Shown here one piece after another: positions 1 through 56,574 of a DNA stretch of 64,000 nucleotides (its first letter is position 1; the number at the start of each line of letters is the position of its first letter). The notes under the pieces were generated by a model. The model searched no databases, was not told the origin of the DNA, and saw only the letters and a program-made list of their open reading frames with translations. Origin of the DNA: Chrysomallon squamiferum (Eukaryota > Animalia > Mollusca). The stretch spans positions 32,674,001 through 32,738,000 of the forward strand of contig CM022670.1 in the NCBI GenBank assembly GCA_012295275.1, read 5' to 3'. A program made the translations under genes and the position numbers.

Positions 1-3316
<3,316 letters not shown>

Positions 3317-13383: not shown

Positions 13384-16300
13384 TTATAAAACAATACAAA
13401 CAGCACACTTGGCAACATGAACTTGTTCAACAGTGGTAGCCTGTGCAGCAGATGCATTTTGCAGGGTGGAGTTCAAACTTGGTGTAGTTGTGTCCCATGG
13501 TGCAGGTGGGGCCAGATCCAACTCAGGCTCTGATCCACTTTCCAGACTGTTGTCAGCAAACAACCAGCTGACAGTGTCAGTCTCTTTCATTGTCTTGGCA
13601 ACAGTTGTGTCTATGCAAGGGGAGAAAACTGGTGTCACATGAACAGACAGTCTCTGAATAATTTCACTGTATTTGTCTTCAAGGTCTGCATGGATTCCTG
13701 TACCACCGTGGCCTCCAACACCTTGAACAAAACAATACTGATCACAATATCGTCCAGATCCAATTAAATATTTTTAAAGAATGAATGTATGAGTGTGTGT
13801 GTGTGTGCATCAGTGTGTGCATGTGTGTGCGTGTGTGTGTGTGTAATAGCTGAAAACAAAAATATTGCTGTGGAGAATTAAGAACTAAACAGAAACCTCC
13901 AGAGCACTGTTGACTGCTGTTGTCTTAGAAGGAATGAAGCAACTGTTATCTAAACATAAAAAGTAACTAATTTTAAGATATTTATTCCTACCTTTCATAT
14001 TTATGTAAGCTAACTGTGAGAATATGACTGCCATGCCACCTGGTGGAGGCCACATAATGTTTTCAAACATGATGGGAATCACAGGTTTGTGTAGGATATC
14101 AGCAAGGCTAAGTTCCCGGTTGCAGTGATGAGAAACAACATACTTGGGTGTTATACATGCTATCACAACCTGCAAATAACAGTGTTAGATGTCTGTGTAA
14201 GATCACATTGTTTAAATATTGCATTACACAGATTTTGAGTACTTTAAATATATTGATCATAACTCCATGTTTAGAACAGAATGCAATTTTCATTTTCTCT
14301 TTTCCTGAAATACAGAAAGGCTTAGGTCATGAAGTTAAATAAATTTAATTAATTTTAACTTAAATTTTAGGTTTTGCTGAGAGAAAGAAAACACACTAAA
14401 ATAAAAATTAAAAATACGTAAATTAACAGTAAACAAAATTAAAAACAAATAAAAAATAATAAAAATCCCAAACAACTAATTTTGATTACTGTGACTTCAC
14501 CCAAACAACCCACCTTACTCTTGCGAATACCATCATCTATTTTTACATTCAGCAGATCCCCAGCCCCCATCTGACCAATGTCCATCCAGCAGGAGAAACC
14601 TGCCCTCTCCAAGTGATCTCTGAGAGCCTGGACATCATCCTGTATATCCCACTGGTAACTTATAAACACCTGGGCAGGTGCAATGCCATTTTCTGTAACA
14701 CAAATACCCCTATAATTATATTTCTCTGTTTTTTAAGAAAGAGTTTTTCTAAAAGGTAATAAAAATGTTCCCCAAAAAACCTATGCAATTATAAATTAAA
14801 ATTTTGTTAAAAACTGAAATCAGAGTGAACTTTATCTATTGATTGCTATGTATCTACAAATTATAAATGATAAAATTTAGATGTTATATTCTGCTTGAAA
14901 AATTCAAAATGTGATATAAAACTGAATAATGCCTGAAAAATAGTTAAATTTCAACTATATCAGTTCTGTCATATCAACGTTTGATTCTGTTTCTTAGTTG
15001 CTATGAGGTCCCACAGTGAGAATACTGTTTTATGTTTACATACAAATAAAAAAACAAAAAAATAAATAAATAAAAAATAATAATAATAATTAAAAAAAAA
15101 AAATAATAATAATAATAATAACAAAAAAAAAAATAATAATATTAATAAATTGTATCTTTCTTTCAGATATAAAATGTTACCTTTAGCTCTCTGAATAATG
15201 TCGACAATGTCGTCTCTGCTGAGTTGTTCGAGATAGACACACAGCAAGTCGACAGAGAGATTGGTGTTACCACTGCTCAGTATCCAGTCTGTGAGCAGAA
15301 CCAGCGAGGGGTTCAAGTCTTCGTTGATCTTGTCTATCTGACTCAGCTTGTAACCTGAGCAAATAACATTTCTTTTAGAACTAAATAACTCATCAAAGTA
15401 TATTTATTTCAATTAAAATCATCCATAATACAGGTAGAAAGATTTGAGAAATCTTCAATACATAGCTGTAGTTAAAGAAAACATTATTTAGTAAAATTAA
15501 AAGATACTGTTATTATTTTCTGTTCTTTCTATTAATTTACAAATAAAACCTTTTTTTCATTATCCTAAAATACAACATTTATGAATGTCTAGTATTTAAA
15601 AATCTTCATATGGTTGATTTGCAACCTGCATTAGACTAGAATTTATTAACTATATTATGTTTATTAATGTTATTTTCATAATTATATTTGAACAATAAAA
15701 ATTAAACAATCATCTGAAATATTAGACTCCTAATAAATGTCTGGATAAATAGATAAATATCATATTTTATTTCAGAAACACACCCATAAGCTTAGCAAGA
15801 GCAATCCAGTCTTGGTTTTCATCACCCCCATTCAACAGCTTAGCTGCTCCTTTCATCCAGATTGGTAAATCAGGTACATTCTTTTCTATATTTCCTCCAG
15901 CTTCTTGTAGGCACAGTGGTGGAACAATAGGCTGATGAAAATCTTCATTAAATAAGTAGATAAATAAGAATTAAATAAATAGATAAATAAGAATTAAATA
16001 AAAAGATAAATAACAATGACAGTAGTTTTATTAATAATAATAAATATAATAATGATAATAATATTAATAATAATTATAACAATAAAACAGTTTTTTTTAT
16101 TATTAAATAGGTTTTTCGTTCTTTATTTCTTTTTCAAAAAATAAAAAATAAATCTGAATAATTCTATAAAAGAAAAAAACAAGACATTTTTATTTTAAAA
16201 TATTTCTGTCTTGATTTTTTTTAAAAAAAGAAAAGAAAAAAGAGTTTTAATGATGAGGATGATTATTATTAGTTTTGCCTAGATGGAATTAAGAAGCTTA

Positions 16301-19300
16301 GATATAAATACAATAGATGGGAGCATCATAAATTGATGAATCAAAATTACAACTTTTTATAACATGTAATTAGTCCATGATGTATATAACATAAACAAAA
16401 GGAAGTGAAAGTATATTTTAAAAAAATGTTTTTTACCTAGTTTTGGAACAGGAAACCAATTTTTAATAGTCTCAGTCTTAACCCTTCTATGTTCACAGCA
16501 TACCACCTGTGGAATCATTAAATGAAAATATTTTTATTTATTTAGGTTTTTTTTGGAAAAATATTCCAATAATCAAATAAGAGAAATAAAAGGAGTGAGA
16601 GTTGGAAGAACAGGGAGAGGGAGAAAGTTAGAGAGAGAGAAAAACAAAGAGAAAAGCAAGAGTGTGACAGAGAATGAGAGACAAAATGAGAGAGAGAAAG
16701 TGGGAATGACAAAGATAAAGGAAAAGATGAGTAAGAGAAAAAAGTGGAAGCTAGAAGATGTGATGAAGAAAGAAAGACAAGCACATATGTATTCCAGCCA
16801 GTGTGTGAACACTGATTACTTCTATTTACCTTGCTGGTGATACATTCATCAATATCGAGAAAGTGAATACATGATTCCTCTGTACACCCACTCTGACTGT
16901 GCAGTGAACATTCTTTCCAACATGGACACACTAAGCAGGTCTTGTAGGCTATTCTTTTCATCCACAGAGAACGTAGGTCAGATAACGTACATTCAAGAAA
17001 ATATCGCACCTGTAGAGAAAATCATAAACAAAAACTGATCTCAGATATGAAAGAGGACTAAAATAAGATGGAAATACATTAAAATTATTAATTGCACTTT
17101 GTTAACTGACCAGTAAAATTATAGTATTTTGAAACTTGTTATAATGTTTGTAGAAATGCAAATTAGATGTTATAAATATTTCTTTAAAAAAAATATACAT
17201 AAAAATAAAAATAATAAATTGTTTTACTGAAACTCAAAATTATAATGTAATGAAGAATGAAAATAATTAGCACATGATTAATGATATTAATGATAAAATT
17301 TAACTCACTTTGGCACAAGCTGCTGGTGTTGGGCTTCTTCTAGCTTCTGTTGTTGTTCTGTCTTTGCCATCACCAAGAAACATTACAACTACCTTTTAAA
17401 AAACAAAATGTTCAACTGTCATGTTAAAAAGGAATATTTGCTGATCATACTGTTTGATGCTAATTAAATAATGGCCATTATGTTTTGCTTTGTTTTACTA
17501 AATCTGAACTGTTATTGTATAATACAGGTAAACATTTCATTAAACAAACATGTTAAAGTAAACAATATATATAATAATAAATACAGTATATTAATACTTG
17601 TATTATGAATAATACTGCTTCTGATACATATTTTATAAATTTAAATTATAATGAATTTTATATATTATTTATGGAAATAACAAAACTAAGATGGAAAACT
17701 GGAAATAACTAAATATTTATTAACATATTTGGGATGTTTTTTTTTTAAATCATTTTAATCATTTGACCGGTTTGTAATCTGTTATATTCCAACAAAACAG
17801 TAGCCCAAAGTATCGGATTATTTACATTATGTATTATATTTATAAAGAAATGTTGATAAACTCATGAAATTTGTTTTGAAATATTTAGCTAAGAGATTAA
17901 TTGTTTTGTATGAAAATAGCTTATTACAGTTCTGCCTTCAAAACTTTTAAAATTACTATGATGTGTTTTAATTTATAAATATTTTCCTTAAAATTCACAT
18001 AACAAAATCAATAATAATAATTGCCTGGGTTATAAATCTGATAATCCACAACATCTCTAGACAATTTTCATTAAAATCATCCATCCACAGATAATAAATA
18101 AAAGGTTTTACCATAATTGAAACACTTGATAATTTTTTAATTTTGTTTCTTGATAAGAACGCCTAATACATATAATGACAATAAAGAAAATCATAAGTAA
18201 TATGTGCTGATAAAATGAATTTTGTAAATTCTTTTTACTTTTATTCTTTGATAACGTCGATGTGAAAGTTCCAAGACAAAATCATGGTCAGAATCAAGAT
18301 AAAACCTAGCCACCCTGCGGAAAAGGTGAAGGTCGCGTCCACCATTATCTTGTGACCATCTCACAGTCCGAGTTAAGATTCGAAAAAACAAGCCATCTGA
18401 GGATACAGAAATAGTAGGTACAAAACTAGAAACTAATATATAATAACAATAATAATATGAATAGTAATAGCTGTAATAGTAGTAGTAATAATAATAATAT
18501 TAACAATTTTTAAAAAATGAATAATTATTTATCTCAGGATCTCTATTTAAGATGTCAATAGTTTGACATCCAGATATTTAACAATGAAATTATTAAGTAA
18601 GTAACAATACCTGGTAAGAAACCATTAAAGTCCATGTAGAAGACTGCGTCATTTTCACTGTGCCTGTAAAGTCCTTGTTTATCCTGACACTTTCTTAGAC
18701 ACATGGGTACGTAATAGCTTTTTGTCTCCTGAAAATGAATCTTGAAAACAATTAAAACAGGTTTGTGTGTGAAATAATTTAAAACCAATAATTAAAAAAA
18801 AAAAAAAAGTAGAAATGATAAAAATTTCTAAATTATGAATCTTTAATTTGAATTGTAAAGTGAAATGAATAGAATGATCTTATAAATATTTGAAATAAAT
18901 AGTATAATATTATAAATATTCAAAATAAACAATGTAATATTATAAATATTTGAAATAAACAAGTATAACATTATAAACTTTTGAAATAAATAGTATAACA
19001 TTATAAGTATTTGAAATGAATCATTTGATTTGATAAATATTTGAAATAAACAGCACATCATCAACATCTGAAATGAATTTGATGATTTCGTAAATACTTC
19101 TGATTATGTGGCAAAACAATACTGTAAATCATCGAAATTCTGAAATTTTAAATTTCCATTTTGAAGCTTTACATAAATGCAATTTACCTGTCCTTGGGGT
19201 GGGAGTCTTTCTGAAATCAGGTCAAATGTCTCCATCAGTTGTAAAAGAAGTTGTTTCTGAATGAGTGCGTCTTCCCACAAAGTATCTATGAGAGGATCTT

Positions 19301-20883
19301 CCAGGATGCCATGTTCCAACAGCTGGACCCATTTGTCTGACAGGAGATTCCACTACAAAATCACATTCAAAAAGAAAAAACACATAAATAAAATTGGCTT
19401 AATAAAATATATGATCAAAACCTATAAAGATAGTAAAATAAGTTTTCTTCAAAAAACCTCACAAAACCATCAAACCTCCAAATATCTATTTAAAACAGTT
19501 AATCCTCTGAGAATGTGACATCTTTCTCAAATATCTTACAAATATTTTTAAAATTAGGAATCTGTAACAGGCATTTAATATCAATTAATGATCATAAAAT
19601 GATATGTAAGTAAGTGAATGCTCCACAGAATCTAAAATATCCTGCTAAAAGTTTAATTTATTAAATACTTAATATCTAAATGAATTTCAAAATAAAACAA
19701 CATTCAGACAGGTTCTAAAGTTATTTACAGTGAAAATTTGTTTTACTACTATGAAGGTGGTAAAGAAATAACCTTATCATTTGGTTTGTCTGTGGTGATG
19801 ATTCGTTTGAACATGTCAATGAGCCACTGTGGTTTTAACACCACTGTGTCCTGCAGCACACTGCTGCTTGAACTCAGGGCGTCATAGTGAATAACAACAC
19901 CAAGGTCATGATAGAACTCCAACATAGTCTGCACTTCTTCAGATGATGTGATATCATGGTTGTGGGCAATTTCAGAAATCTGTGGAAAAACAGAGAAACA
20001 TAAATTAAAGACAGATTTCATTCGTATGTTATTAAAATAAAATGTCTTTAAAGTGCAGGAAAAGGTTTTAGGAATGTTGTTTTAAATATTAATGGGGTTG
20101 AAAAATAATTTTAAAAAATCTACTACATTTAAAAAAATAAATATTATTAAATTAGTTTCCATTCATATTTTATCAAATGAACTAATTGTAATTTAGATAA
20201 CTTTTTTAAAAATTCAGTAAATTTAGTTTTGAGTTTTTGGAAATTTGATTTCAATATCAATGGTTATAAGAAAAAAAATTAAGAAGGAAATTTAGACTAT
20301 CATGAATGATGACAAGAAATGATAAAAAAAAAAAAAAAAAACCATTTTATATTCAATTTTTTAACTGAACCATTATAATAATTCTATAATGCAAATCAGA
20401 ACAAATTAACTGACTAAACAATGAATACTGTAAATCTTATTACCTGCTCATAGGTGGCAAAGTTTGTTCCTGTGTCAGCTAGATGAACAATCTCCTGCTC
20501 AAATTTTAACCACTTAATTGGAATTTGTTCTCCCATGTATGGCTCTCTATGAGCCACTTTTTCTATTTCTTCTCTTAGCAAGTCAATCTGGAAACAAATT
20601 TATAAACATCACAATATGTTTGGAAACCATTCTGTTTATCACCTGCTTATTCATCATTAATGTCAAATTAACCACCATAGTGAATTTTGGGGGGTTTTTT
20701 GGTTTTATTTATTTATTTATTATTATTATTATTATTATTTTTACCTGTGGATCTTCTCCCAGCTCATAATTGTTTTCCACTGCAAAAAATGGTGTCACGA
20801 TGTGCTGAGCATAGGGTTTACCAGTAATAAACTCTCTTAACTGTCCAAACTTTTCTTCTACCTGTGTAACAAAATTAAAACAA

Positions 20884-20915
<32 letters not shown>

Positions 20916-23900
20916 AGTATAGAGAAAACTAAGACTGATACATCATAGTGAATATCTAAAGTCTGTTTAATTATAATATTGCTATATCTATTGTAAAATA
21001 AAAAAAAAAAAAAATAAACATTAACTAAATACTTATGATGATGATGATGATAATTAGAATCACATACAAAACAATTAACAGATTATCTAAAGTTATCAAT
21101 CATAAATAAATGCATTAATGACTGAAACTCATCTATAATATCTAGTTTCATTTAATGCATCTGTGAAGTGATTTAAATAAAAATATAACTTTGCACAATT
21201 GCAAGAAAATGTTTAATATTAAACTGTTATACTGAATATCTTTTTAAATTTGTTTTTAGTTTCAGTCATTAATATATGAGAAAACTGACCCTTTGATTTT
21301 GTGTTTGAAAATCTGGGTGAAGACTGTTTCGGTGGGTGCCTACAATGAAGATTGGTGGTGACAACTTGATGTTGTCAACACTATTTCTTGTATTTTCAGC
21401 TGCATGGCTGTGAATGGATCTCATCCAGAAGTCCATATACTCTAGCACTGATAATTCCTCTTCATTTTCAGACTATAACATTAAGAATAAATTAAAATAA
21501 TTAACAAATATGTTCTGTTGATTATATTTGTTTTACAATATTTGTTTTTAAATCTAAAACATACATTATTTAGAAACATAGAGTAAATTTCTGTGAGGTA
21601 CGTATTCAAATTATTAAATATTGTTGGCACTGGATTATTTATTTTTAAAAAGATTTTGTAAAACACAAATACATTAATCATTCAAATCTTTAAGTGATAG
21701 ATTTTTATTTAGACTTTGTTGTTACTCATATTTCACCTGTATTTTGCTTTCTCCATCACTATTAACAAGGTCATCATTCAAATTGAAAACTATAACATAG
21801 ACAGCTCGCGATGTAAGGAACACCTGAAACAGATTTTTTAAAGGTTAAATAAATTTATATATATGAAAAAAAATATTAAGTATAATATAATGTTGGCATT
21901 TAAAAAATAAGTTATGAGTAATTATAATATACATTGTGGGTTTTTAATGATGAAAAAGTGTCCTTTATATAGTTTCATTTATTAATAAATAAATGTAAAA
22001 TAATTTTACTTCAAATACAGCAAACACAAATAAAATAAAAGTGTACACACGCAAACACATTATTATTATGATAAACTTTGGAATAATAGATATTTCTGGA
22101 TAGTGCTAAATTAAAATCTGTAATTTAATATATCAAAATTAACAAAGCTTTATTCCTCATAAAGACTGATTTATAGATTTCTAAATTACCAAAACAATTT
22201 CCTGAAAATATCTTAATGTCAATCAACAGCATTATCATAAGAAAATACACATATTTATACAAATACAAATACCTATACATTTACATATATTCCTTTTCAT
22301 ATAGGATTACATTGTAATACACAATGTATATTTTACTATGAATATAAATTGTTGTTGCTTTTAAACTTTATAACAAACACTATATAGTAACACATATATA
22401 TTGATTTGTATAATTAAATTAATTAAGTATAGTTATTTCTCTAATGTTAACCAATATCGTCTATGCTAATTTTTATGCTTAACACACACACACACACCCA
22501 CTCACCAACACACACACACACAAACACTTACACACTAGTTTTTGTTTTCAATACTAATTTGACGAGTGACATAACTCACAGCTTGGCATTCAAATCCCAC
22601 ATATTTAACAGCCACTGATATTTTATATCTTCACTGTTTTGCTTTAGTTTTTTTACGTTTCACCTACACCTACACACAATAATTATCCATAATAAACAAA
22701 ATGATTTATTTAAATAATAACCTGATGAGTGGTATAATACACAGCTTGGCCTGCAAAATCCCAGATGTTTAAAACGACTTTCTGACATCTCTCTAACTTC
22801 AGAAGATCTGCACCGTTTGTCTTGTTAGAGCTGTTTTCTTTTAACATCTCCTGTACAAGCTCCACCACACGACTTGGTATGTCTGTCATTACGTCAGGAG
22901 GAATTTTAACATTTTCAAGAACAGTGGTTGTGGAATTTGACTGTTTTGTAAAATGTGTTTTTGCATCCTGCAAGCATATTTTAAAAATATTTTTCTTTTA
23001 TTAAGGTTTTAGATTTAACTGTTTTTAAAGAATAAATTATCTTCAAATGTTATTCCTTAATATAAGTGAAGAGCTAACTAGTTTAAAGGGAAGACAACAA
23101 AGAATAAAATGCACGTAGTTTTAAAATGTGTCAAGTTTTGCAAAAAATTGTAATTTATAATTATTTCACATTCTGACAAATAAAAAATAATTTTGAAAAT
23201 TAATGTAAATAAATTCTCAATTAGGCTTTAAAAACTTTAACAAACCTTGACTTAATCATTAACATCTTTGGGAAAGCATAAGAAAAATATAATTTATTTT
23301 TAAGAAAAAAAAAAGGAAAAAAAGAAAAAGAAGAAGCCTAAGAGTAAGAAATTAATTTTAACAGATGATCAATAATAGTGAATAATAACAATAAAAAGAA
23401 AAATATTAAAATAATTATTAAATATAAGGAAATAAAATATTATAGACATTGCTTTCTTTTTTAATGTCCAAATGTCAAAAGGATTTTAAAGTTGATCCAC
23501 TGAAAGAAAAATGCAGTTTGACAACTGAATCAATACTTTTTTCCTGTCATCTTGAAATGAGACAAGAAAGAAAACAAAAAATCATTATTATAAGTATTTA
23601 GAAGAGAACAGTAATTCAAGATTCACTGTACACAATTTTGTAATGAGACTTGTATCAAAAATCAATAGAGTTAATTTGTTCGACACAACATTTACTTAAA
23701 TATCAATAGGAGTTTTCTTGCTCTACATTTAGGGTTACCTAATTCTTGAGACATTACACAGAATATTGATTCTAACCTCAACACTGAGTGCACATCCATG
23801 AAAAGAAAAAATCAGATGCATGCACAATGGTAGACTAATTAAATTTGATGTCTATTGTCTGTTTTATGATATCAGCATTCAGTCAGTGCAGAAAGGAAAC

Positions 23901-26500
23901 ATATAGAAGAAAAGCTATTTATAACCTATTACTAATATCTTTTTAATGTATAATGCCATAATCAAACACAAATTAACACACATAGTGTATATCAGTTGAC
24001 AATAAAAAGAAAAGAAAAAACAAAAATAATAATCAAACATATTAATGTTAATTAAAAGGCTATAAATGACTACTTTTTAATTTATTTTTGTCTGCAGTTC
24101 TCCGACATTTATACTAAAACTGTAAAATTATTATATTTGTTTCTGAATTATTTCTAGGTGATTACTTAATATCTGAAAGTTATTATTTTTTTCATGATCA
24201 CAAAGTTATTATTACTCACATCCAGAACCATCAGGCTAAAAAATACTTTTATAATTTCAGTGAATTGAGACCACAAAACAGTAATTTCCTTTTTCTTTCT
24301 TTCTTTTTTTCCCTTCCCCCTCCATTATAAAAATAACTTTTATCTACTTTGACTATTATTACCTTTGAAATGTTTTCTTCAGAACCAGTTATTGATGATC
24401 TTTTTACTGGATTGGGAGATTTTCCAGCTTCATTAACTTGCCGTTTCTGATACAGTAATTCTTGAACAATGTTAGTTGCTATAGCTTTGTGATATTCCTC
24501 TTCAATTCCATCTGAACCACCTTAACATAATAAAAAACCAAAAAATAGGACCTCTAATCATATTAATTTATATTATTTTGTAAATACATAATCTAATCTG
24601 TGCTATACTTCTCAGAAAGTTTATCAAAAATATATTCATTACAGATGCCCAATTAGTGTCTGTTACTAGTAGATCACCCAAAGCAAAACTGTGTAAACCA
24701 TCTTCTTTGTCTAAAAAGTTTGCTTATATTTATAATTTCTATAATAAAAACCCATTTCTTTGCCTAAAGTATTTTTCAGGTATTTCAACATTACTGTAAG
24801 TGAGATGAAAGCATACAAATTATAAAATAATAAATTTAAAATATTTATTACCTAAAATGCCTAAATTCTTTCTGTCATCCTCTGTTTCTTCTGTGACTGT
24901 ATCTTCTCCCTTGATAGCCAGTTTCCAGGATGATCGGTTATTTAGATTGAAAGAACATGATGATGAGAGGTCAATTCCATCTGTCCTTTCTTCAGAGTCA
25001 TTTTGACTATATAAAAAAAAAGGTAAAACATATCTACACTAACATTTCAGTGCAATGAAAAAACCCACATTAGTTCTCAGTCTAATCATAAATTTGCTCA
25101 AGCTACTCTTTAACGCAGAGTTAACAGGCAGAAATAAAAATTAAAACTGATTAAAATATTTCAGAAACCAACCTCTATATGGAAGGGTTGTAAATACTGT
25201 AGAAGTCATTTCTAGGGAGTGTTTTGCACTTTTTACTTATTATTATTATTATATTTATCAATTATAGCATAAATGTGTGTGTTTATGTGTGTTTTTGTTT
25301 GTTTAGTTCAAGGCAAGGTAACTGCATGGAATATAGATGATCTACCTTTGGCCTGTGAGGGACTTCTTTAAGCTTGTTTTCCCAACCCTGTCTTTTCCAA
25401 CAAGCATTAGTCGGGTGCGGTACACTGACTGTGTTCCTGACTGACATGATTTCTCGTAGGCTTCTATTGCCTTAGGACCTCTTGCTGTTATTTCTTTTGG
25501 AGCATCATCTGAGTAATAAATATGTAGCAGAATGTAATATGACAAACAATCTTACTTCAGAAAAAATTCAGAGAACATATTAACAAATGACTGAAAAAGC
25601 AAAAGAAATAAGCTTGGATTATATTGTAACAGATGTTGAAAGATCCATCTTTTGAAAGTTTGATCTAACCCATGTCAGAGATTAACATATTGTTGAATAT
25701 TGCTTTAAACTGCATTTATACTTTAGTATCTTCAACATCAGTTGTTTCAGAAACATTCTGATGGTCAGAAGCACTATTTCTAAGTCATTCATTTATACAT
25801 CATATTAAAGCAAAAACATAATTCAAAAATGATGGTAGCCTTTTTCATTTTACACACACACACACACACACACTATATATATATATGTATAAAATATTAA
25901 TAAAATATTAATAGTCATGGACATTTTGTCTTAGGAAACTTTATATATCGAATTCCAACAATAAGTAAATTATGTATCAATTGATAATAGATAAGATGTG
26001 ATTTTAGAAGTATATAAAATACAAATTAACATACCTGACTTAACAAACTTGGCACTGTTTGTGTTACCATATATGTCCAGCAGTAACCACAGTGGTTGAT
26101 TTGTTGGTAGGTTGGATAGGAGAACTCCTTTATGCTCTCCATCTACAAAAAGTTGGAGCTGACCAGCTTGTGTTATATAGAATGTCACTTTAGAACCTGT
26201 TGAGATGAAATTTTCGTTCAATGACCTGACCCAATAGCCCTCCTTTTCAGTAAGATCTGGATATGCATATTTAGGAATATCATCTTCACTGAGAGTCTCT
26301 GGATTGACTGTTGTTAGTCCTATCCGTACAGCCCCACTCCATGCTGTAATGCATGAAAGCTCCACAGAATATCTTTTACCAATGCTAACTGGCTCTTGTC
26401 CAAACACAATTCCATTACAGAAGTGTGCTTCTGTCCTTGTAGCCCGCAGTTTATCACTGGACAGTGAGACAGCCTTCCCATGAACATGGTGAAATTTCAT
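13384..26500 (-). CDS. Kinase-less Roco protein: NHR(Neuralized)-Roc-COR-Cys/His cluster-Death-TIR-CaaX, ~1242 aa. Exons (minus): 26500-26035, 25508-25346, 25006-24852, 24520-24363, 22967-22722, 21823-21737, 21472-21290, 20861-20745, 20587-20444, 19979-19773, 19352-19188, 18728-18611, 18396-18239, 17392-17309, 17009-16830, 16506-16437, 15942-15784, 15354-15181, 14692-14514, 14169-13992, 13721-13384
   Basis: 21 GT-AG exons join in one open frame (3729 nt including stop). Motifs: MKFHHVHGKAVSLS...FCNGIVF...LWLLLDIYG (NHR); RLMLVGKDRVGKTSL (P-loop); RTDGID; IWDFAGQ..YY.TH.VFLT; IFIVGTH; MGEQIPIKWL, FYHDLG, LKPQWL (COR); DWIALAKLMGY...LLTDW...LEQLSRDDIVDII (Death); VFISYQWD...CWMDIGQM...SHHCNREL...PVIPI (TIR); ends KCAVCIVL*. 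Confidence 0.9.
13992..14692 (-). other. TIR domain (TIR_2-like, two exons)
   Basis: VFISY box 1, L...GFSCWMD, I..GI..SKVVIACITPKY..S..C..EL..A....KPVIPI. Confidence 0.88.
15181..15942 (-). other. Death domain (two exons)
   Basis: AAKLLNGG..DWIALAKLMGYKLSQIDKINEDLNPSLVLLTDWILSSGNTNLSVDLLCVYLEQLSRDDIVDIIQ fits the six-helix Death-domain pattern (DW..LA..LG, LL..W, L...L..L.R.D.V..I). Confidence 0.85.
16437..25508 (-). other. Roc GTPase + COR tandem with Cys/His-rich tail
   Basis: G1 GKDRVGKTS (exon 25508-25346); switch I RTDGID (25006-24852); G3 WDFAGQ (22967-22722); G4 GTHRN (21340-21326); COR motifs IPIKWL, FYHDLG, PQWL, YYVP, FLPDGLF; Cys/His cluster at 17009-16437. Confidence 0.9.
18851..19100. 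repeat. ~30-bp degenerate minisatellite (about 8 units) in a Roco intron
   Basis: Repeated unit approximately TATAAATATTTGAAATAAATAGTATAATAT. Confidence 0.8.
26035..26500 (-). other. Neuralized homology repeat (NHR) domain, encoded by one exon of the Roco gene
   Basis: FH-x-x-HG start, FCNGIVF-x-x-x-P, WSGAVRIGLT-x-x-x-P, GYWV and LWLLLDIYG match the Neuralized/NHR pattern. Confidence 0.88.
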
Positions 26501-26568
26501 CTTGTAGAACTCATCAGTTCTTCAAATTCATCCATTCTGACTTCATTATCTTTTGCAGTTAGGTGCAT
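26497..26568 (-). promoter_or_regulatory. 23-codon upstream ORF whose TGA overlaps the Roco start codon (ATGA)
   Basis: Minus strand GCC ATG CAC CTA...ACA AGA TGA encodes MHLTAKDNEVRMDEFEELMSSTR*; its TGA (26499-26497) overlaps the main ATG (26500-26498). Confidence 0.6.
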
Positions 26569-29500
26569 GGCTAAATTAATCAATAGTAATACACATCTTT
26601 AACAAAACTGCTGCCACAGGTGGAGTTATAACACAAACAAAAAACAGTGGTCGATGATAATCAACAGAATGCTGATCTAAGTAGATAAAACATCAGCAGA
26701 TTTGAAATGTATTGCTGTACATGCCAATATCAAAACAGATGATGTATAGCTGCCTTTTAAATACATTTTATGTGCCAACTTGAGACAACATTCGTAATTC
26801 TTCTATGACAATCATCTGTAAGAAAAAAAGATATACATGTAACAGTAGAAAAAAACACAACATTAATCAATAGGATATGGAATACAATCCTTCTTGAGCA
26901 AACTAATGCCTATAAAGGATAGGAATTTCTCCAATTAAATTAGTTACTCAATTTTCAAACATCAAAGTTTCCATTACTACCTTTAGTTTATTTATGTTCC
27001 ACAAATTATGTTATTTTACAAAAGAATTATTTCTTCTTCAACAAATATTTATCTATATCTATTTATTTTTTATCTGTTAGGCTTATACTATTACTGATAA
27101 ATTTAAACTATTTTTTAAATAATCAACTGTTGAAAAAATAATAAAAAGAAAACCATACCAATATTACTTTCTTCTACAAAATTCTAATTCAAATGATTAA
27201 GTAAAATTGATCTGTTCAAAAATGTTCTTTACCATATTATTTTTCCAAGAGCCATTATTTAACCTTACAACCAATACTTGACATATTACATAACATTTTC
27301 TTTTGATAGATACTGAACCCATTAAAATTTTCAATACAATTCTCCAAAACAGGACAGTTATTTTTAAAGATTACTTAATTTTATTATGCAGTATTAATAA
27401 GAACTATAAGTTTATACATGTTCAGGATCAAATTTTATATCTTCTATTGATATTGTTAAATAGGAGTACCAAAAGATCAAATGACTTACGCAATTATAAT
27501 ATAGATAATCAAAATGTTAACTAGACCATAAATGAAATATCTTTATTAAATATCTATTATGACAAAGACTTTTAATGAAGAATGCTTAAATTGGGAGTGG
27601 AAAATAACACTGCTTGAAAGCCTGTGTAATACAAATCAAGTTCAAGCCGATTAAATGAAACAGGAAGTCTCTTATTTATATAAAAAAAAATACACTTCAA
27701 ATAACAGTCTTGCTGGTGCATAAATATTTTATCGATACACAACAGAGAATACAATTTTTGGTATACAAAGCCTAGCAACACAATTGGATAGTACATATAT
27801 TGATCTGTTTAAGTAAAGAACATTTTCATTTAAAACAGTTTACAAACATTTGCAGTTCATGCAGTTTATTTGGGTTGGAGGAAGGAGTTACTGTTGTTAT
27901 GCCAGTGAAGAAAAAACATTATGATTAATAAACAGTTTAAGGTGACATTAGGATCTAAATACAATTGTTTGATTATTTATTGTATTAAACATTATATTTA
28001 TTTATTTATTCATTCATTCATTATTTAGCTTGTTGTTTTTATTAGTTTCCAAGTCAAATTTACAAAAAATAATAAGAACTTCTTAATCATGAATAAGGCA
28101 TTGTTTTAAGCATATTCATAAACAATTTTAGAAAAGACATCCCACAAAAATGTCATTTTATTACATAATACATTCGATTTCACAAAATTGTTTTGTATAT
28201 ATTACAATTTGAAAAATGCCTAGGTAAATACTTTTTTATTTATATATAATTTTATATATTTATTTTCACATTTAATAACACCTATCTATTTATTGTCATT
28301 TAAACCATAAAAATTCAATTGTGGACACATTCATTAATGCAAGCCTGTCAATGTCAACACATTTTTTAAAATAATTAATTAATACAGACTACCAGTTATT
28401 GAACAGGGGATATAAACTTTTTTACCAGTAAATAAATAAATAAATAATATATATGAATAAACTTAGTGTTATTTTAATTTCCTATTCAAAGCAACTGTTT
28501 TAGTTTGTACAGAAAGGCAGCAGTGATTCTACATCCAAATGCAAATTCAATTTATATTTGATAAAGAAAATATTCAAATTAACAAGGAGGAATTTAGAAT
28601 ATTCAGATTTAAGCTAGTGACACTTTGGTCAGTTTTAATACTTGAACTTAATAATTATTGCATATAAATATATTTTAAAGCAATGATACTTACAATTATT
28701 TTTGGCATCTCTAAAACAATTCAATTTATTTCAATTGTTATTTATTATAATTCTGTTAATAAAAGAATGAATTCATTGGGTTATTTCCATTGTAGCTGAT
28801 TTGTTTATTAAAGACAATATGTGTGCTTTCCAGTCTTTGAGAAAGTGGAGTGGTGACAGTGATTTCAGATCATTATGATACCAACAATTTATTCTTGACA
28901 CTTAATATCTGTTAATAGAAAAATGCTCTAAATTATTTATTCATCATGTTTCACAACAAATCAATAACTATTAAAATATTCATTAATTATAATTATATAA
29001 AAAACAAATTTGACACCTTATAACAATTAATATCAAATGGGTTATTATGCAACTATTCATTCATTTGTAATTAGTATTAAAACAAATTATGTCTCACACT
29101 TAATAACTGTTAAGTACTATTATAAAGGGTCAAGTTTTATCATAAATTCATTTAATATATCATTGCAAACAAGCTACAGGACAACAATTTTTTAACTCAT
29201 TCAGAGTCTTTATAGTTTTTACTAATTCATTCATTATACTTCTAGGTATTAATAATGTGTAATTCCCAAAGTATACACTTTCAAAAAGGTTTCCTACCCC
29301 AGCCATATCATCCTTATTATGTTGATAATTAATGTTTTACAACCAAAATATATGCATTCTTTCACTGTATACACAACTAACCCCCCTGAAGATAAAAATA
29401 ATGATAATAATAAAAGTATCTTTGGTCTGAGAAACAGAGAGTCAGACATAAAATTCTGAATGTTTTGTTAATATAATGAACTAGCAGGTCATCTTCTATC

Positions 29501-31370: not shown

Positions 31371-32081
31371 TTCTGTTTAATGTTTTTATTTAATGACAGT
31401 TACAAATAGATAGGTAAGAAGAAAAAAACACCTAATAATAAACTAATAATAATAATAGTAATAATCATAATAATAACTAAATAAATAAAACAAAATTAAA
31501 TACTGTCTTAATTTAATATTAAAGTGAAACTAGTTTGCGTAAGTTGTTTGAAAAAACCAAAAAAAAAAAAAAAAACCCACTTAAATACATTACTGGGCAT
31601 TTATATAGAAGGGGATGTATCCAGTCCAAACCGTATCTTAATCGATGCCCCATCTGTTAACAGTATCTAAAGAAGGCGTTCAAGACTAGCAATAAAGCAT
31701 TAACGGTACAGTATATATATATATATATATATATATTAAAATCGTTTATTTATCTTTTGATATAATACATTATTCTTTAACATGTACTAACACATTTCAG
31801 TATCAATTATTCTGTAACAAACAACATGTAATTCACAAAACATGAAATAAAATGGAAATATAACATATTTAAAGAAAAAAAAAAAAAAAAAAGCACACAA
31901 ATCATTTATATAATATACATTTTTCCCCCAGTATATTATATTTAATTTAATGTAAAATATTGTTTGTGTTTCTTTATTGTTGTTGTTGTTGTTGTTTGTT
32001 TGTTTTGGGGTTTTTTTTGTATTTGTTTATAATGGGATCTCATACATCAGCGGTGGAAAATGAAAAAGAATAAGGAACAAG

Positions 32082-33553
32082 ATGGCTGCTTCCATGCATA
32101 GCAAATGTTTTCAGCGATTTTATTTCAATTATGTTTTACTTTTGAAATGTAGCCGCAGAGGGAACTACCACATATTTTGGGCACCACTTTCTAGTACATC
32201 GGGGCCTCTTGCCACAAAAGACGAAGATGAAGAATATGACCATATAGCAGCCATACGAAACGTGTCAGGTTTGAAGGGTAACCTTTACAAACGACTTCAC
32301 AGTGAAATGCCCGAAATTCTTAACAGTTACCAAGAACAGCTGCGTTATCAAAGACGACTTTATGCAAAATTTGGTTCACAGTCGGATATAGATCCAAGAA
32401 TTATGTGGCCAAGCAAAGCGCAACTGGCAGAAATCATTGAAGACGAAAAAACATGGGAACCAACACTTGAACAGACACTGGAAATTGTTCGCAACAGAGA
32501 GCTCGAAGCAGCAAAGATACAGAGATTGCGGTTTGTTTTCTTAATAGCATATAAAATGTAATATCTTAGATCCACCCTTTAGGTCTGCCCTATGTTAGCA
32601 AAGGTTTTACTCAGTACTTCACTTCCATTTACCAATATAGTATTAATAACTTAATCAGTTAATGAAAATACTTTTTTAAAAGTCACATAAAACTGTAAAA
32701 CACATTCAGTGATTCACTCTAACTTGTCTGTCAACCAGTTTTGCCTTCCAATCATAATTATATATTCACTTCTTCATCAAATAAGAAAATACTGCAAACA
32801 TAAACAGCAGCACAAAGTTATATGACAACATATAAAATATTAATCATGAGGATATAAAAGAAAATTAAAAAATCTAGAATATTTTTCACTTAATATTATT
32901 AAATAAATAGTCTGTCTCAATTAAGTATTTTTCTAGGTGTAGAAGTTGGTAAATTATGTAAATTTTATTATTCATTTTATTAAATTATTACTGATTTAAA
33001 ATGAAATCAGTTTGAAAAAAGTCAAAAACACTTTTTATTTATTTTGTTTTTTTCATTTTTTCCACCTAGTACAGTAACACAATCTTAATGAAAATAAAAT
33101 TCAATATGCTCAAATTAATTTGAAAACTTGTAAGATACATTCACGTTTTTTTTACTGTTCTGATTTTAGAAAGGCCTTAATGATTGGATAATGAGAACAT
33201 TTTCCCAATTGTTTGTTTTAACAGGACTTATCTTCTATTCTGTATCAATTTTCATTTTCAGTGAAGAGAAAGTGGAACAGAATATGGAGAAAATGTCTAA
33301 GTGGATAGATGAATACCACCAACGGAAACAGGCTCTGGTTGACCAGCAGAAGAAGAGAGAAGATAAGAAAGCCAAATTGCTCGAGGAAGCTCGCGAGTAT
33401 TTTGGATACCAGATTGATCCTAGAGACAAAAAGTTCAAGGAGATGTTAGAAAAGAAAGAACTCGAGGAGAAGAAGCTAGCCAAAAAGAAGAAGAAGCAAA
33501 CCAAGCTGGAAGAGCTGACTGCCAGACTTCAAGCCATGACTCAAGAGTCCTAG
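32082..33553 (+). CDS. GADD45GIP1: GADD45GIP1 / CRIF1 / mitoribosomal protein mL64, ~246 aa. Exons 32082-32530, 33262-33553
   Basis: YAKFGSQSDIDPRIMWPSKAQLAEIIEDEKTWEPTL and EAREYFGYQIDPRDKKFKEML match CRIF1/mL64 motifs. N-terminus looks like a mitochondrial presequence; a phase-2 GT-AG intron joins the two exons in frame. Confidence 0.9.
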
Positions 33554-46955: not shown

Positions 46956-49900
46956 AATGAAATTAAATTTGTTTGATAAAGAAAGTATTTTAAAAAATTA
47001 AATAAATAAATACATAAAAAAAAAAAAAAAAAGATAATCAAAATAAACAAAGAAAGAAAGAAGAACTAACTAATAATTATACATGCGAAGAAACAAATGA
47101 GTTGAAAGTTGAAAATCATACTTGAAAATCATAATCTGTTATGAATTAATCTCAGGTCAATTTTAAATACTACATCAATAACATTTGATACTATAAGAAA
47201 CTTTAAGAACTGAGAAAAAAAAACTCTCATCCTTATGTTTTCTCAGTATAGTGTTATCTATTTAATAATTTTAGTAACATATACCATGACGTAGTGAGTA
47301 TATCCAAGTCCATTTGCTACAACGACTGTGATCTTTGGAACTGCAGCACAGCTTACAGCTGACAACATCGCTGCTTGTGCCTTTAGTTGTTGGCCCAGTA
47401 ATACAGCTAAAAAACAATATCACAGTTTTGTGTTTTTAGATTAATTTCACCATGAATGTGGATTTAAATAGATTGATAATTGGTATAATGTATTTCAACA
47501 TGGGACCATATTTATAGCTTTATTTTCTAAATAATGATAGGATAATGAATACGTGTAAAAGAACTGATTATATTTAATGATATTAAAACAACAAAAACAT
47601 TAATAACATAACAATATTAATAACAGTAAAATAACAATAGTTATGGTATCTCTAATAAATAAACAAAGAATATCTAACCATAAACAAAAATAAAATAATT
47701 AAAGTATATGACTATCTATGATATTAGTTATAAATTGTGATGAAATATTATTATTATTATTAATTTTTTTAAATGGATATATAACTTTTCAAAGTTCCTA
47801 ACTTTATTTTCATGCTTAAAAAAGATTAAGTTTATATCAATTAATCAGATATCTTATTGGTAGATTATCTGATACAAATTTGAAAATAGATTTAGTTATT
47901 ACTAAAAAAAAAAGATTAAAAGTTATAAAAAAAGAATAAACAATGTCAGGAAAAATAACAAAACAAGTGTCAAACAGGCTGACCTTTGTTTTGCATCTGT
48001 AAGTTCACTAGAGAATCTGGAACTGTATTTTGAAGAAATATAAGTGGAATATTTCTCTCAGAACATATCTGAACAAAGTGACATCCCTTTATTGCAGCCT
48101 TTTCAGTTAACTCCCCTTGGTTCCCAACAATCCCTACAAGATGCCTGAAAACATTCATAAATATTACTCAGTTTTTTAACAGCTTAAACACACACACACA
48201 ATATAAAAGAATTGTTCTGGAAAATAATAATTAAAAAAAAAAAAAAAAAAAATTTCTGTTGTATTTTAAACATCTGTACACCTATTTATTATGTATTTAT
48301 TTATATAAATTTTATATCAAACACACATCTACTTAAATCTTTGAAGAACATGGATTTTGAATGGATGTATATATGTATATATATTTTCAGCATTTTTAAA
48401 TGGATATAATCTTGAATTACCCACAAATATATGCAAATCCTGTCAATAAAGTTGGTCCAAAAAGTTTTTTGAATTCACGGAATTTGCTAGAATCAACCAA
48501 TCTAGCAATTACCTAAAGAAAAATAAACAAATTTAACTTTTTAACAATACTGTTGTTTAAAGAAACACACACATCTTTTTTTTTTCAATGAATATTCTTT
48601 AATCCTACATACACTAGAGTGATATTCGAAATTATCACATATTAGAAAAAAATATCATTAATTCATTAATAATTAAATCACAGCCATTTAAGTCTCATAC
48701 CTCATGCATATTCATGTGATGTTGATTTTCTAGTGGAATTAGTCCTGGTAATTCTTCGGGGTCATAATGAGGATCAACTGGGGGGAGAGTAGGGTGTGGT
48801 GGAGCAGGCAAATTCAGACAGGTCACTATGTCTCGAGTGATTTCAAATGCTTCTTTTTCTGTCTCAGCAAAGTAATCAGTACATCCACTAACACTAGAAC
48901 AAATAAATAAATAATTAATCAAATGAAATGAAATTAAATAATAAAAAATAGATAAATATACAAATAAACACACATAAACAAGAAAACAAATAAATAAACA
49001 AGCAAATAAAACACAAAACACTGTATTATTAATTCCTTCATTTCTTTTAACTGACAGTTAATTAAATTATTTTGAGATTATACCTAATAGAAATAAAACA
49101 TTCTGTAGATTTTTAAATAATAAAAATTTCAAATGTAAAATAGTAACTCTTTTTAAGGATAAAAATGGAAAGGTATTTTAAGTTATACAACTTTGTAACA
49201 CTGCAAAAAATATACAAAATGTTTAGAAAGATTTTTATGAAAATATAAATTCACCACTTAGAAACAAACAGTATTAAAATTTTTAAAAAAAAAAAAAAAT
49301 TAAATAAATAAATAAAAATAAAAGATAATAATGAAATAACTGGACAAAAAACTTTAATACTTTAAAAATGATGTTACCAAATCAGAAGTACATACAAGTC
49401 CTGCTGGGTGCAGTGTTTATCAGATCATACACATAATGCTAAGCCCTGTTAAGAAAGTTTTTTTTACCTACAATGGAGTGTTGCTCCTCCTAATTCTTCT
49501 GCTGTTACAACTTCTCCTGTTGCTGCCTGAACTAAAGGAGGGCCTCCAAGAAAAATAGTTCCAGATTTGTGTATAATAACAGCTTCATCTGCCATTGTGG
49601 GAACATATGCACCTCCAGCTGTGCAGCTTCCACAAACAACAGCTACCTTTGCGTGTATTAATATACAAATAATAACATTTAATATAAAACAATTTTATTA
49701 TTGACACTGTAAATAAGAATTAAAATAAATTAAATTAATAAATTGTAATAGGTAATTTGTTTTCAATTTTTCTGAAGAAACCTTACTAGTAAAATTATCA
49801 AAATAAATATCTAAATTTCTAAATATATACATTTTGAAGAGACTATGATATCATTTTTAAGTGTTTAAAAAAATTATATATTATTTGTATCAACTTGCTG

Positions 49901-51521
49901 AATTGGAACAGAATAACTATATTTTTTTTTGATATATACAATATTTAGTATTTCATTTAAATTATAAACTTTTATTAATGATAATTAATAAAAAGATTAA
50001 AAAACTGAAACTATTGCTTAAATATTCTACTTACATTAATTATTTATTAATATTATTAATTAAATAATTATGTTATAGTAAAGTCAATTAATGAACATAG
50101 AAAATACCTGAGGTATCTGCAAAGCTCCCATAACTGCTTCATTATAGAATGTCTGACCACCAGGGTTGAAAATCTCTGACTAAAATCAAAATGATATCAA
50201 GCATTATTAAACCTAAATAAGAAAAATATTTTTACAACAAAAATGCAGGGCACATGAGCAGTTATGTGTGGTGAGTCACAGAATATGTTCTGTTAAGTGA
50301 TCTAGGAGTCATTTTTATTTAAACCAGTGTTTCATGTATACTTGCTTTTCTGATAAAAGGTCTCTTCCCAGTAATCATTAACAGTAGCTTAACATGTAAT
50401 AAACACAAAGAATCTTCTTTAAAAAAAATCTAATTAACAGTTATGACATGCTGAATTAGTGTTAAATAAATATTTATTTATTCAGTACAAAGACACAATA
50501 TAAAAAATAAAAAAAATGATTATACAATAAAGATTTTTATTGTTTTTAAATGTCATTAAATGTTATATTTCATATAACTTCAACAAATAACAGTTACCAC
50601 AAACTCTCACTTGCAAAGGTAGAAAAGCACCTCCTGAATCAACTAAATAAATACATGGAAGATGATTTTGTAACGCAATTTCTTGAGCTCTCAGCTGTTT
50701 CTTTAGAGTGATGGGGTAGACAGAGCCACCCTTAACAGTAGCATCATTTGCAACTACAAGGCAGTATCTTCCAACAATTTTACCAATGCCTGAAAAAGAA
50801 ATAAAAAATTAATTAAAAACTGATATAGAAGAAAAGTATGCAGAACCATTGTTTTAGTTTATCAATTTATTGCTCTGTCCTTAAAACTAATAATAACGCA
50901 TTAAAAAAAATGTAGATTTAAGAAATAATGATATAAATAATAAATACAATAATTTAAAAATACTGTTGTACCTATGGTTTAACCTTCTGTTTTTCCCTTT
51001 TTGAAATGAATAACAGAGTATAAGAATAAACCAGTGTATAAAAATAGATAACATTTAGTATATATACATTTGCATGTGGTTGTCTGTGTGTATAGTTTTA
51101 AACATGTCTATGCTTTAACTTAACCTATAACAAGTCCTGCTCTGGCTATGTCACCATATTCCATGCCCAATCCAGCAACAGGTGATAATTCCAGAAAATC
51201 ATCTGTGCTGTCATCAAATAAAAGATTTATCCTGTCTTGGACAAGCAATTTTTTATTTCTTTTGGTGTGTCTTTCAATTGCCTTATCACCTCCACCTGCA
51301 AATGACTTCTGCAGCATCTGCACATACACATTTTCTCTATGTTTGGAGGCTTCATAATTTTCTATAAATTGTTTAGAATTTTTGTCTATTTGAGATTGTA
51401 TGATGGGGAAAGGAATGTTAGTTTTTCTTTTATATGTTATATCTTCCCCATTCTGAGCTGTGCACAGAGAAGAGACAAAAACTGATCGTTTTCCTAGGAT
51501 GCCAATTCCTTTAAACCAACC
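45719..51521 (-). CDS. MCCC2: Methylcrotonoyl-CoA carboxylase beta-chain-like carboxyltransferase (divergent MCCC2 paralogue), ~570 aa; start unresolved. Exons 51521-51125, 50789-50611, 50179-50108, 49646-49468, 48893-48701, 48512-48421, 48144-47984, 47406-47285, 46909-46814, 46537-46394, 45796-45719
   Basis: [102 protein letters not shown] and a C-terminal VLRM*. All junctions GT-AG and in frame. Confidence 0.88.
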
Positions 51522-55600: not shown

Positions 55601-56539
55601 ATAATCTTTTCATTGGATGTATTTTATAGCTTTAGAGTGATAATAATAAGATGAAATTAAAAAATTTTCCAGGACATATTCCATTATTATTAAAAAGCAG
55701 TTTTAATGACAAACAAAATAATTTCATTTTGTATAAAATTATTTTCTTTTGGGTTTTTTTAAGGTTGAAGAAGAAGAGAATCTGATAACAGAACTGAAGA
55801 AGATTGAGCTTCGTAAACGAGAACGAGAAAAGAAGACACAAGATCTGCAGAAACTGATCACTGCCGCAGACAGCAACATCGACAACAGACGTGCAGAGAG
55901 AAGAAATATGAAGAAAAGAATCACACCACAGCAGAAAATCAGAGAAACTGGAGTAAGTGTTTTAGTTCTTCGTTGTTGTTTTCCAGTAAGAATGAAATAT
56001 AATGTATCATTACTCTGATACATTGAAGATAACAATGTCCTAAACAGAACTGCAAGCCAAAGTAAAATTCAACATTATTCAATAAAGTCAGTTCATTTTG
56101 AATGACAATAAAATCCAGAATCAGGAATAATTTATGTCAAAGAAAGTTTATCCACTAACAAATGCCTTTCCATGAGATTTATCCTTTGTTTTTTATTAAA
56201 TGCCCTTCCATCATTTTATTGTCTGCTTGCATTTCTCATACTGTTATTATAATAACAATTTTTTGTTTGTTTGCAGCCTTCTACACCTGATACTGCTGGG
56301 ATAAAGTTTCCAGATTTTAAGCAGTCTGGTGTCACATTGCGCAGTCAGAGGGTATAATTTTTGTTTTATATTTAAAACATATAGCATTAATAATATTGCT
56401 TATAGTTCTGTAATGATATTTGTAGATATTTTGGTATTTATTAATTAATGTTGTGTCAGGACACCATTTCTTTTAAAATATTTAAAAAAATATATATTTC
56501 TTTATTATATATTCTAATTCATATAAATGGTTTTTTAAT

Positions 56540-56574
<35 letters not shown>

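Follow-up and report, generated by a model that had tools for sequence, protein, structure and literature searches.

A Chrysomallon squamiferum Roco gene of the bilaterian NHR-Roc-COR-Death-TIR-CaaX family with a putative NAD-cleaving TIR domain

The locus and its gene model

The window analyzed here, a stretch of 64,000 nucleotides of Chrysomallon squamiferum DNA, carries on its minus strand a gene of 21 exons (coding span 26500-13384) that encodes an NHR domain, Roc, COR, a Cys-rich subdomain, a Death domain, a TIR domain, a low-complexity tail, and a CaaX end, in that order. The neighbouring genes in the window were the 3' exons of a cyclic-nucleotide phosphodiesterase (1804-3316, +), GADD45GIP1/CRIF1 (32064-33553, +), an MCCC2-like carboxyl-transferase (48695-51521, -), and DMAP1 (54512-57863, +). 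These neighbours are housekeeping genes, and no immune gene cluster was seen in the window. Pfam gave no match for exon-like frames at 37.6-38.7 kb (-) and 61.2-62.7 kb (-). The contig region around the gene was AT-rich (22-34% GC) and intron-rich.

The gene model was built by picking AG/GT sites around open frames. All 20 introns were GT-AG; for exon 13 two donors were compared, and the frame was kept with just one of them. The coding sequence of 3729 nt starts with an ATG at 26500, has its sole stop at the end (13384), and encodes 1242 aa with the C-terminus CAVCIVL. Exon 1 (26035-26500) encodes the NHR (Neuralized) domain (aa 1-155) and is followed by a phase-1 intron; its 5' UTR part probably occupies 26501-26817, with an acceptor-like site at 26817. 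This upstream stretch contains 11 ATGs on the minus strand, three of them in one frame whose stop runs into the main ATG, an arrangement that may slow translation. Exon 2 (25346-25508) encodes the pre-Roc linker helix and the P-loop GKDRVGKT (25375-25398), and exon 3 (24852-25006) encodes switch I (TDGID). A Roc insert of about 140 aa begins in exon 4 (24363-24520) with a helix followed by a poorly conserved part, and ends in exon 5 (22722-22967), which also carries the G3 motif WDFAGQ. The C-terminal half of Roc is encoded by exons 6-8 (21737-21823, 21290-21472, and 20745-20861), with THRN as G4 (21326-21337) and FAVEN as G5. COR-A is encoded by exons 9-11 (20444-20587, 19773-19979, and 19188-19352), COR-B by exons 12-14 (18611-18728, 18239-18396, and 17309-17392), and the COR-B end with a Cys/His cluster by exons 15-16 (16830-17009 and 16437-16506). 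The Death domain (exons 17-18; 15784-15942 and 15181-15354) and the TIR_2 domain (exons 19-20; 14514-14692 and 13992-14169) each have phase-1 introns on both sides, and the codon of a putative catalytic Glu1090 (14113-14115) lies within the TIR exons. Exon 21 (13384-13721) encodes a GGHGG loop, the last TIR helix, an unconserved tail, and the CxxCaaL end, of which CIVL and the stop occupy 13384-13398.

When the Gigantopelta aegis protein P0001 was compared with the window by tblastn, all 21 exons were matched in order and no other match was obtained in the window. P0001 and the window protein shared 83.1% global identity over 1239 aligned residues, and the range for eight compared relatives was 37-83%. 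Pfam searches with 15 single exon frames of the window recovered Neuralized (E 1.6e-41), COR-A (E 2.6e-13), Roc (E 2.5e-5, G3 exon), Death (E 2.5e-5), and TIR_2 (E 1.2e-10 and 1e-6), and five of these frames had no match at E 0.1. In full-length P0001, Neuralized, Roc, COR-A, Death, and TIR_2 were all above the Pfam cut-off, and no kinase family was reported. The one-chain status of the window protein rests on its homologues, including the RefSeq NP_ entry P0085 and Logan entries on contigs of 4-6 kb. Four RNA runs from one study contained 0.21-0.25 of the words sampled from 18200-26600, close to the share of 0.236 expected if exons 1-13 alone were present; the word shares therefore fit a spliced transcript of the gene. 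The original prediction of a 21-exon splice model of about 1242 aa, with NHR, Roc-COR, Death, and TIR in this order on one chain and no kinase, was thus confirmed at the level of the predicted transcript by the open frame, the GT-AG introns, the collinearity of P0001, the full-length homologues, and the Pfam matches, which included HMM support for both Death and TIR.

Two introns contained repeats. About 80 bases into intron 5 (22560-22640, -), the 3' end of exon 5 with its G3 stretch recurs in degenerate form, interrupted by stops; this copy is probably a defunct tandem duplicate. In Gigantopelta P0001, 20 residues are repeated in tandem right before the G3 motif. In intron 11, an AT-rich 30-base unit is repeated in tandem in about six copies (18861-19050).

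The family and its CaaX-bearing relatives

Three protein searches listed 150 distinct proteins, and all five domains were found in 49 of these listed matches using domain profiles from a hand-picked 45-row alignment; since this alignment consisted of the window protein and 44 full-length matches, the count is partly circular. The named carriers of the full architecture were molluscs (gastropods, bivalves, cephalopods, and one chiton), annelids, nemerteans, the flatworm Macrostomum, rotifers, Priapulus, myriapods, ticks, mites, echinoderms, hemichordates, and amphioxus, with spiders and further mites among the search representatives. No vertebrate, insect, or nematode name occurred among the matches listed. 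In a Roc-COR tree of 50 rows obtained by a quick method, the window protein grouped within the molluscs and next with the remaining spiralians, with a deuterostome group alongside, a pattern that fits vertical inheritance of a single gene; the long-branch arthropod, flatworm, and rotifer rows had no resolved placement in this tree, and the family needs two changes on it. The 16 family rows of a TIR tree formed one group (98/97). The Roc-COR tree suggested a slow, apparently single-copy descent. The window gene is likely an ordinary orthologue of the listed NHR-Roc-COR-Death-TIR proteins.

The gene is real and intact, and it belongs to a bilaterian family already listed in print. The five-domain architecture is given in a 2016 supplement, whose named proteins were among our matches and agree with the window protein in all five domains and their order, differing in sequence only; the supplement passages on this architecture mention neither the CaaX end nor the catalytic Glu. 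In GenBank the Saccoglossus orthologue is named 'neuralized PATS1', and an Aplysia ROCO-Death-TIR gene was classed as MyD88-like, with the NHR named in the legend of Fig. 6 (PMC9334734). No functional study of the NHR-Roc-COR-Death-TIR family was found in open PMC papers and bioRxiv. The claim that no protein with the full architecture had been characterized therefore holds for function within that literature, but its novelty was overstated, since the architecture is in print and, as the search for it elsewhere indicated, widespread rather than new. A clam transcript called 'neuralized pats1' is reported as 759-fold down in parasite nodules (PMC4769524); being a single assembly isoform named by similarity, it was given no weight as evidence of a role.

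Related Roc-COR cores with shuffled partners formed a separate echinoderm clade in the Roc-COR tree (19 rows, 99). The echinoderm set P0089-P0126 included a CARD with a RIG-I-type helicase (P0097), a macro domain (P0092 and P0096), a kinase with ZU5 or NHR (P0101 and P0106), and FN3-TIR (P0125 and P0126). A coral kinase-SH3-Roc-COR protein (P0124) was 30% identical to the window protein over 829 columns, and no Death or TIR domain was seen in it. A cnidarian form in print (A7RN39), known here by its description, shares a Roc-COR-Death-TIR core with the window protein but has a kinase and SH3 where the window protein has the NHR.

The predicted terminal CaaX box proved to be a constant feature of the family. 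A Cys at position -4 was present in 49/49 full-architecture relatives, and the alignment rows had the -4 Cys in 45/45, a terminal Leu in 44/45, and a second Cys three residues upstream in 42/45, whereas the tail before the CaaX end was only 13% identical. Among other Roc-COR relatives, 1/61 had a CaaX-type end. A CaaL end directs geranylgeranylation, and the CIVL of the window protein follows this C-a-a-L pattern, from which a lipid tag is predicted. The same end was found in a sister family composed of helical repeats, a coiled coil, Death, TIR, TIR, and CaaX (P0061, P0064-P0079, and P0081, with Gigantopelta P0079 included), in which the Glu is kept in both TIRs. It occurred in molluscs, echinoderms, hemichordates, and amphioxus, and both amphioxus and a crinoid had several copies. 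Since this family lacks the GTPase and has the Death-TIR-CaaX cassette in 18/18 members, the CaaX tag appears to track the TIR clade and not the GTPase. CaaX ends also occurred in 72 of the 134 new representatives; fragments of the NHR-Roc-COR family or of the sister family made up many of these. Stand-alone TIR-CaaX proteins were considered as a family of their own and rejected, as those examined seem to be gene calls made on the last exon and covering the second TIR of the sister family. In P0206, P0224, P0232, and P0241, WD40 repeats came after an array of TIRs of a related type, with five to seven TIRs per protein.

TIR, Roc-COR and NHR domains

The TIR was the most conserved domain, with a mean identity of 67% compared to 59% for Death, 54-59% for Roc, and 47-48% for COR and NHR. 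Glu1090, in helix C, was present in 45/45 aligned rows and in 52/52 TIR rows of the clade, and aligned with the Glu in 'WTNYELD' of AbTir. In AbTir this residue (E208) is reported as essential, and W204 as required for cyclisation and in part for activity (10.1101/2022.05.07.491051). The W204-equivalent, four residues before the Glu, is His1086 in the window protein, and Trp was found there in 0/45 and Tyr in 2/45 rows; the missing aromatic points to linear ADPR as product, if the TIR is active. The BB loop reads MDIGQMG(G/A)GD, and a GGHG motif is invariant in the loop ahead of the last TIR helix. A profile of 19 short clade TIRs had Cat1 (E 1e-10), bacterial TIRs, and SARM1 as its top matches, with no MyD88 TIR among 48 matches at E up to 1. 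For P0001, Pfam favoured TIR_2 (E 3.9e-24) over TIR (E 6e-5), and the PADLOC and NCBIfam matches were prokaryotic defence TIRs, the latter under cut-off. An AlphaFold model of the Death-TIR part of P0001 (pLDDT 87) had SARM1/TIR-1 as top Foldseek matches. Using the TIR half of this model, Z-scores were 17.5-16.7 for SPARTA, Hydra TRR-2, and SARM1 (SARM1 16.7) versus 15.6 for MyD88, so that the modelled fold would separate NADase from MyD88-type TIRs only narrowly. Exon 20 alone gave only chance-level matches to solved structures. Based on these comparisons, the TIR of the window protein is likely closest to the NAD-cleaving TIRs (Cat1, AbTir, and SARM1) and is a putative NADase. With SARM1/TIR-1, the closest solved TIR folds, it shares the Glu position and a layout of sensor, oligomeriser, and TIR; however, SARM1 is an ARM-SAM-SAM-TIR protein without GTPase, death domain, or CaaX, with about 20% TIR identity, and the window protein lacks the ARM-SAM-SAM-TIR order of a SARM1 orthologue.

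Several observations count against the NADase reading. The helix-C Glu occurs in over 70% of all TIRs, and its presence need not mean activity (PMC7075850); of the Glu-bearing animal TIRs, only 12/61 were reported active in E. coli (10.64898/2026.04.20.719644). The missing W204-type aromatic and the close MyD88 fold weigh in the same direction, and a G4 Asp in only 12/45 rows weighs against gating of the TIR by Roc-COR. On the other side, a figure legend places a Roc-COR-containing architecture among the cADPR-producing eukaryotic TIRs (10.64898/2026.04.20.719644), and the constant Glu1090, the top conservation of the TIR, and its affinity to Cat1, AbTir, and SARM1 argue for it, as the CaaX Cys in all 49 relatives and the retention of G1-G3 do for a membrane-anchored, Roc-COR-gated form of this reading.

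We weighed whether the protein could instead be a non-enzymatic, MyD88-like adaptor, whose TIR binds receptor TIRs and whose death domain recruits IRAK/Pelle, with Roc-COR and the anchor regulating where and when. The resemblance to MyD88 drawn in the original prediction holds insofar as Death precedes TIR in both. In addition, the death domain matched that of MyD88 (E 2.4e-5) after p75NTR/NRADD, the Aplysia gene has been filed as MyD88-like (PMC9334734), and arthropod MyD88 likewise has a membrane-localising C-terminal part (PMC7075850). The resemblance does not extend to the TIR itself, which falls outside the MyD88 group: MyD88 TIRs carry RDxxPG and FW boxes and have the helix-C Glu in under 10% of cases (PMC7075850), while in our alignment RDxxPG (Box 2) was found in 0/45 rows and the last TIR helix opened with KY-type residues in place of FW (Box 3). 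Three extra modules further distinguish the window protein from MyD88. We consider such an adaptor unlikely, and the putative NADase remains the preferred reading of the TIR.

Roc was directly followed by COR according to Pfam, PDB sequence matches, and Foldseek, and by this membership the window protein is a Roco protein. A model of the Lottia orthologue (pLDDT 76) comprised Roc with the long insert, COR-A, COR-B, the Cys-rich subdomain, Death, and TIR, and matched LRRK1 (E 7.7e-21), CtRoco (E 1.4e-17), and LRRK2 by Foldseek. The pre-Roc linker helix matched its counterpart in Methanosarcina and Chlorobium Roco proteins; the NHR is placed just ahead of this helix, which is preceded by LRRs in the prokaryotic Roco proteins. 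At the COR-B end, C845, C847, H866, and C873 were conserved in 45/45 rows and likely bind Zn. Up to eight Cys/His residues of this cluster are conserved, and it is partly deleted in amphioxus. The linker, the Roc G-motifs, and the COR-A/B fold are shared with LRRK1/2, CtRoco, and DAPK1, and DAPK1 also has the Roc-COR-Death end. Unlike these proteins, the window protein has no kinase, LRR, or ankyrin repeats, and has a long Roc insert, a THRN G4, and an added TIR and CaaX.

Whether Roc acts as a switch was judged from its motifs. The P-loop Lys (45/45), switch-I Thr (41/45), G3 Asp (45/45), and G3 DxxG (44/45) were retained, and the window protein has intact G1, G2, G3, and G5 motifs. The G4 Asp reads the guanine base. 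At this motif the window protein has THRN where LRRK2 has THLD, with Asp in 12/45 and Asn in 25/45 rows, and it thus lacks the G4 aspartate of a canonical guanine-specific Ras-like switch. In tick, mite, millipede, and rotifer rows G1-G3 were eroded with the TIR Glu and CaaX kept, which indicates that not every lineage depends on a GTP switch. A very divergent orthologue, Seison P0243, has an unrecognisable P-loop with the TIR Glu and CaaX intact. GTPase switching is therefore plausible in the window protein and not universal in the family. An enzymatic TIR on a relaxed or nucleotide-independent Roc scaffold, activated by membrane clustering or death-domain partners, would accommodate the scarce G4 Asp, the eroded rows, and the sister family that uses the same cassette without a GTPase, but is improbable given the invariant P-loop Lys and G3 Asp and the intact window motifs.

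The NHR was most similar to NHR1 of Drosophila Neuralized (E 4e-32), and far less to the NEURL4-type structure 2e63/KIAA1787 (E 2e-11). It was among the least conserved domains (48%), and looks like an exchangeable input because oyster RefSeq isoforms P0152 and P0155 lack it and it is replaced in other lineages. The LRRK2 ROC domain binds NEURL4 NHR3-4 in a nucleotide-sensitive manner (PMC4565672), and the NHR-Roc fusion may mirror this pairing. A complex prediction of NHR with Roc-COR scored 0.00 and was given no weight for or against this pairing, and the ligand-binding residue of Neuralized NHR1 was not found in the open PMC/bioRxiv literature. A developmental or trafficking regulator, in which the NHR binds Delta/Bearded-type ligands on endosomes as a one-chain counterpart of LRRK2-NEURL4 with the TIR as local output, would suit a conserved, vertically inherited gene with an NHR nearest to that of a Delta binder, but is doubtful at best given the low NHR conservation, the NHR-less oyster isoforms, the kinase in place of the NHR in the cnidarian form, and the poor match to NEURL4. 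The four border introns (after NHR, before Death, between Death and TIR, and near the TIR end) were all of phase 1, compared to 7/20 overall (chance 0.007, with the borders chosen after the fact), which is suggestive of exon shuffling of the Death-TIR cassette.

Proposed mechanism and significance

With the NADase reading of the TIR preferred, we put at about an even chance a model in which the protein, prenylated and predicted to be anchored in a membrane, consumes NAD+ through a TIR that is gated by Roc-COR and clustered by the death domain. The CaaL end would be geranylgeranylated, and the Cys three residues upstream possibly palmitoylated, keeping the protein on a membrane. The NHR, in place of the LRRs of LRR-Roco proteins, would bind a peptide ligand or regulator, and the Roc-COR nucleotide cycle would alter the oligomeric state. 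The death domain would then cluster several chains, the role of the SAM domains in SARM1, and the clustered TIRs would form head-to-tail active sites that cleave NAD+, with linear ADP-ribose likelier than a cyclic product. By analogy to SARM1 and plant TIR-NLRs, such a protein would be a probable stress or immune executioner.

An immune or cell-death function is suggested by the domains and by prokaryotic LRR-Roc-COR-effector proteins, some with TIR, proposed as conflict systems (PMC8195603). Prokaryotic AP-GTPase (Roc)-COR counter-invader proteins (PMC8195603) and plant TIR-NLRs share with the window protein a chain of sensor, NTPase, and effector, with TIR among the effectors; they have fast-evolving LRR sensors and variable effectors, whereas the window protein is fixed and slow, with an NHR and a lipid tag. 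The parallel to NLR/STAND proteins made in the original prediction thus stands for the layout and not for the core, as the NTPase is Roc rather than NACHT/NB-ARC, and the arrangement of sensor, switch, and effector is kept as a working idea. The slow, apparently single-copy descent and the housekeeping neighbours count against an immune role, unlike what is seen in fast-evolving immune receptors.

More tentatively, and with less confidence than the model above, the two families may share an ancient bilaterian prenylated Death-TIR NADase cassette that was joined to two sensors, NHR-Roc-COR and the helical repeat-coiled coil of the sister family. Such a unit, missing from the vertebrate and insect matches listed, would be the first animal Roco switch directly gating a membrane NAD+-cleaving TIR, and a second SARM1-like executioner pathway in animals.

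The interest lies in the family as a whole, of which the window gene is an ordinary orthologue. Several experimentally tractable animals have orthologues (oyster, snails, sea urchin, amphioxus, and Macrostomum), and the TIR is assayable in E. coli. If true, the model would provide a Roco that lacks a kinase and has an easily measured enzymatic output for studying how the Roc-COR nucleotide cycle controls effectors in LRRK2-type proteins. Should the TIR prove catalytic and under Roc-COR control, the family would represent a conserved invertebrate NAD+-based executioner or messenger pathway beside SARM1.
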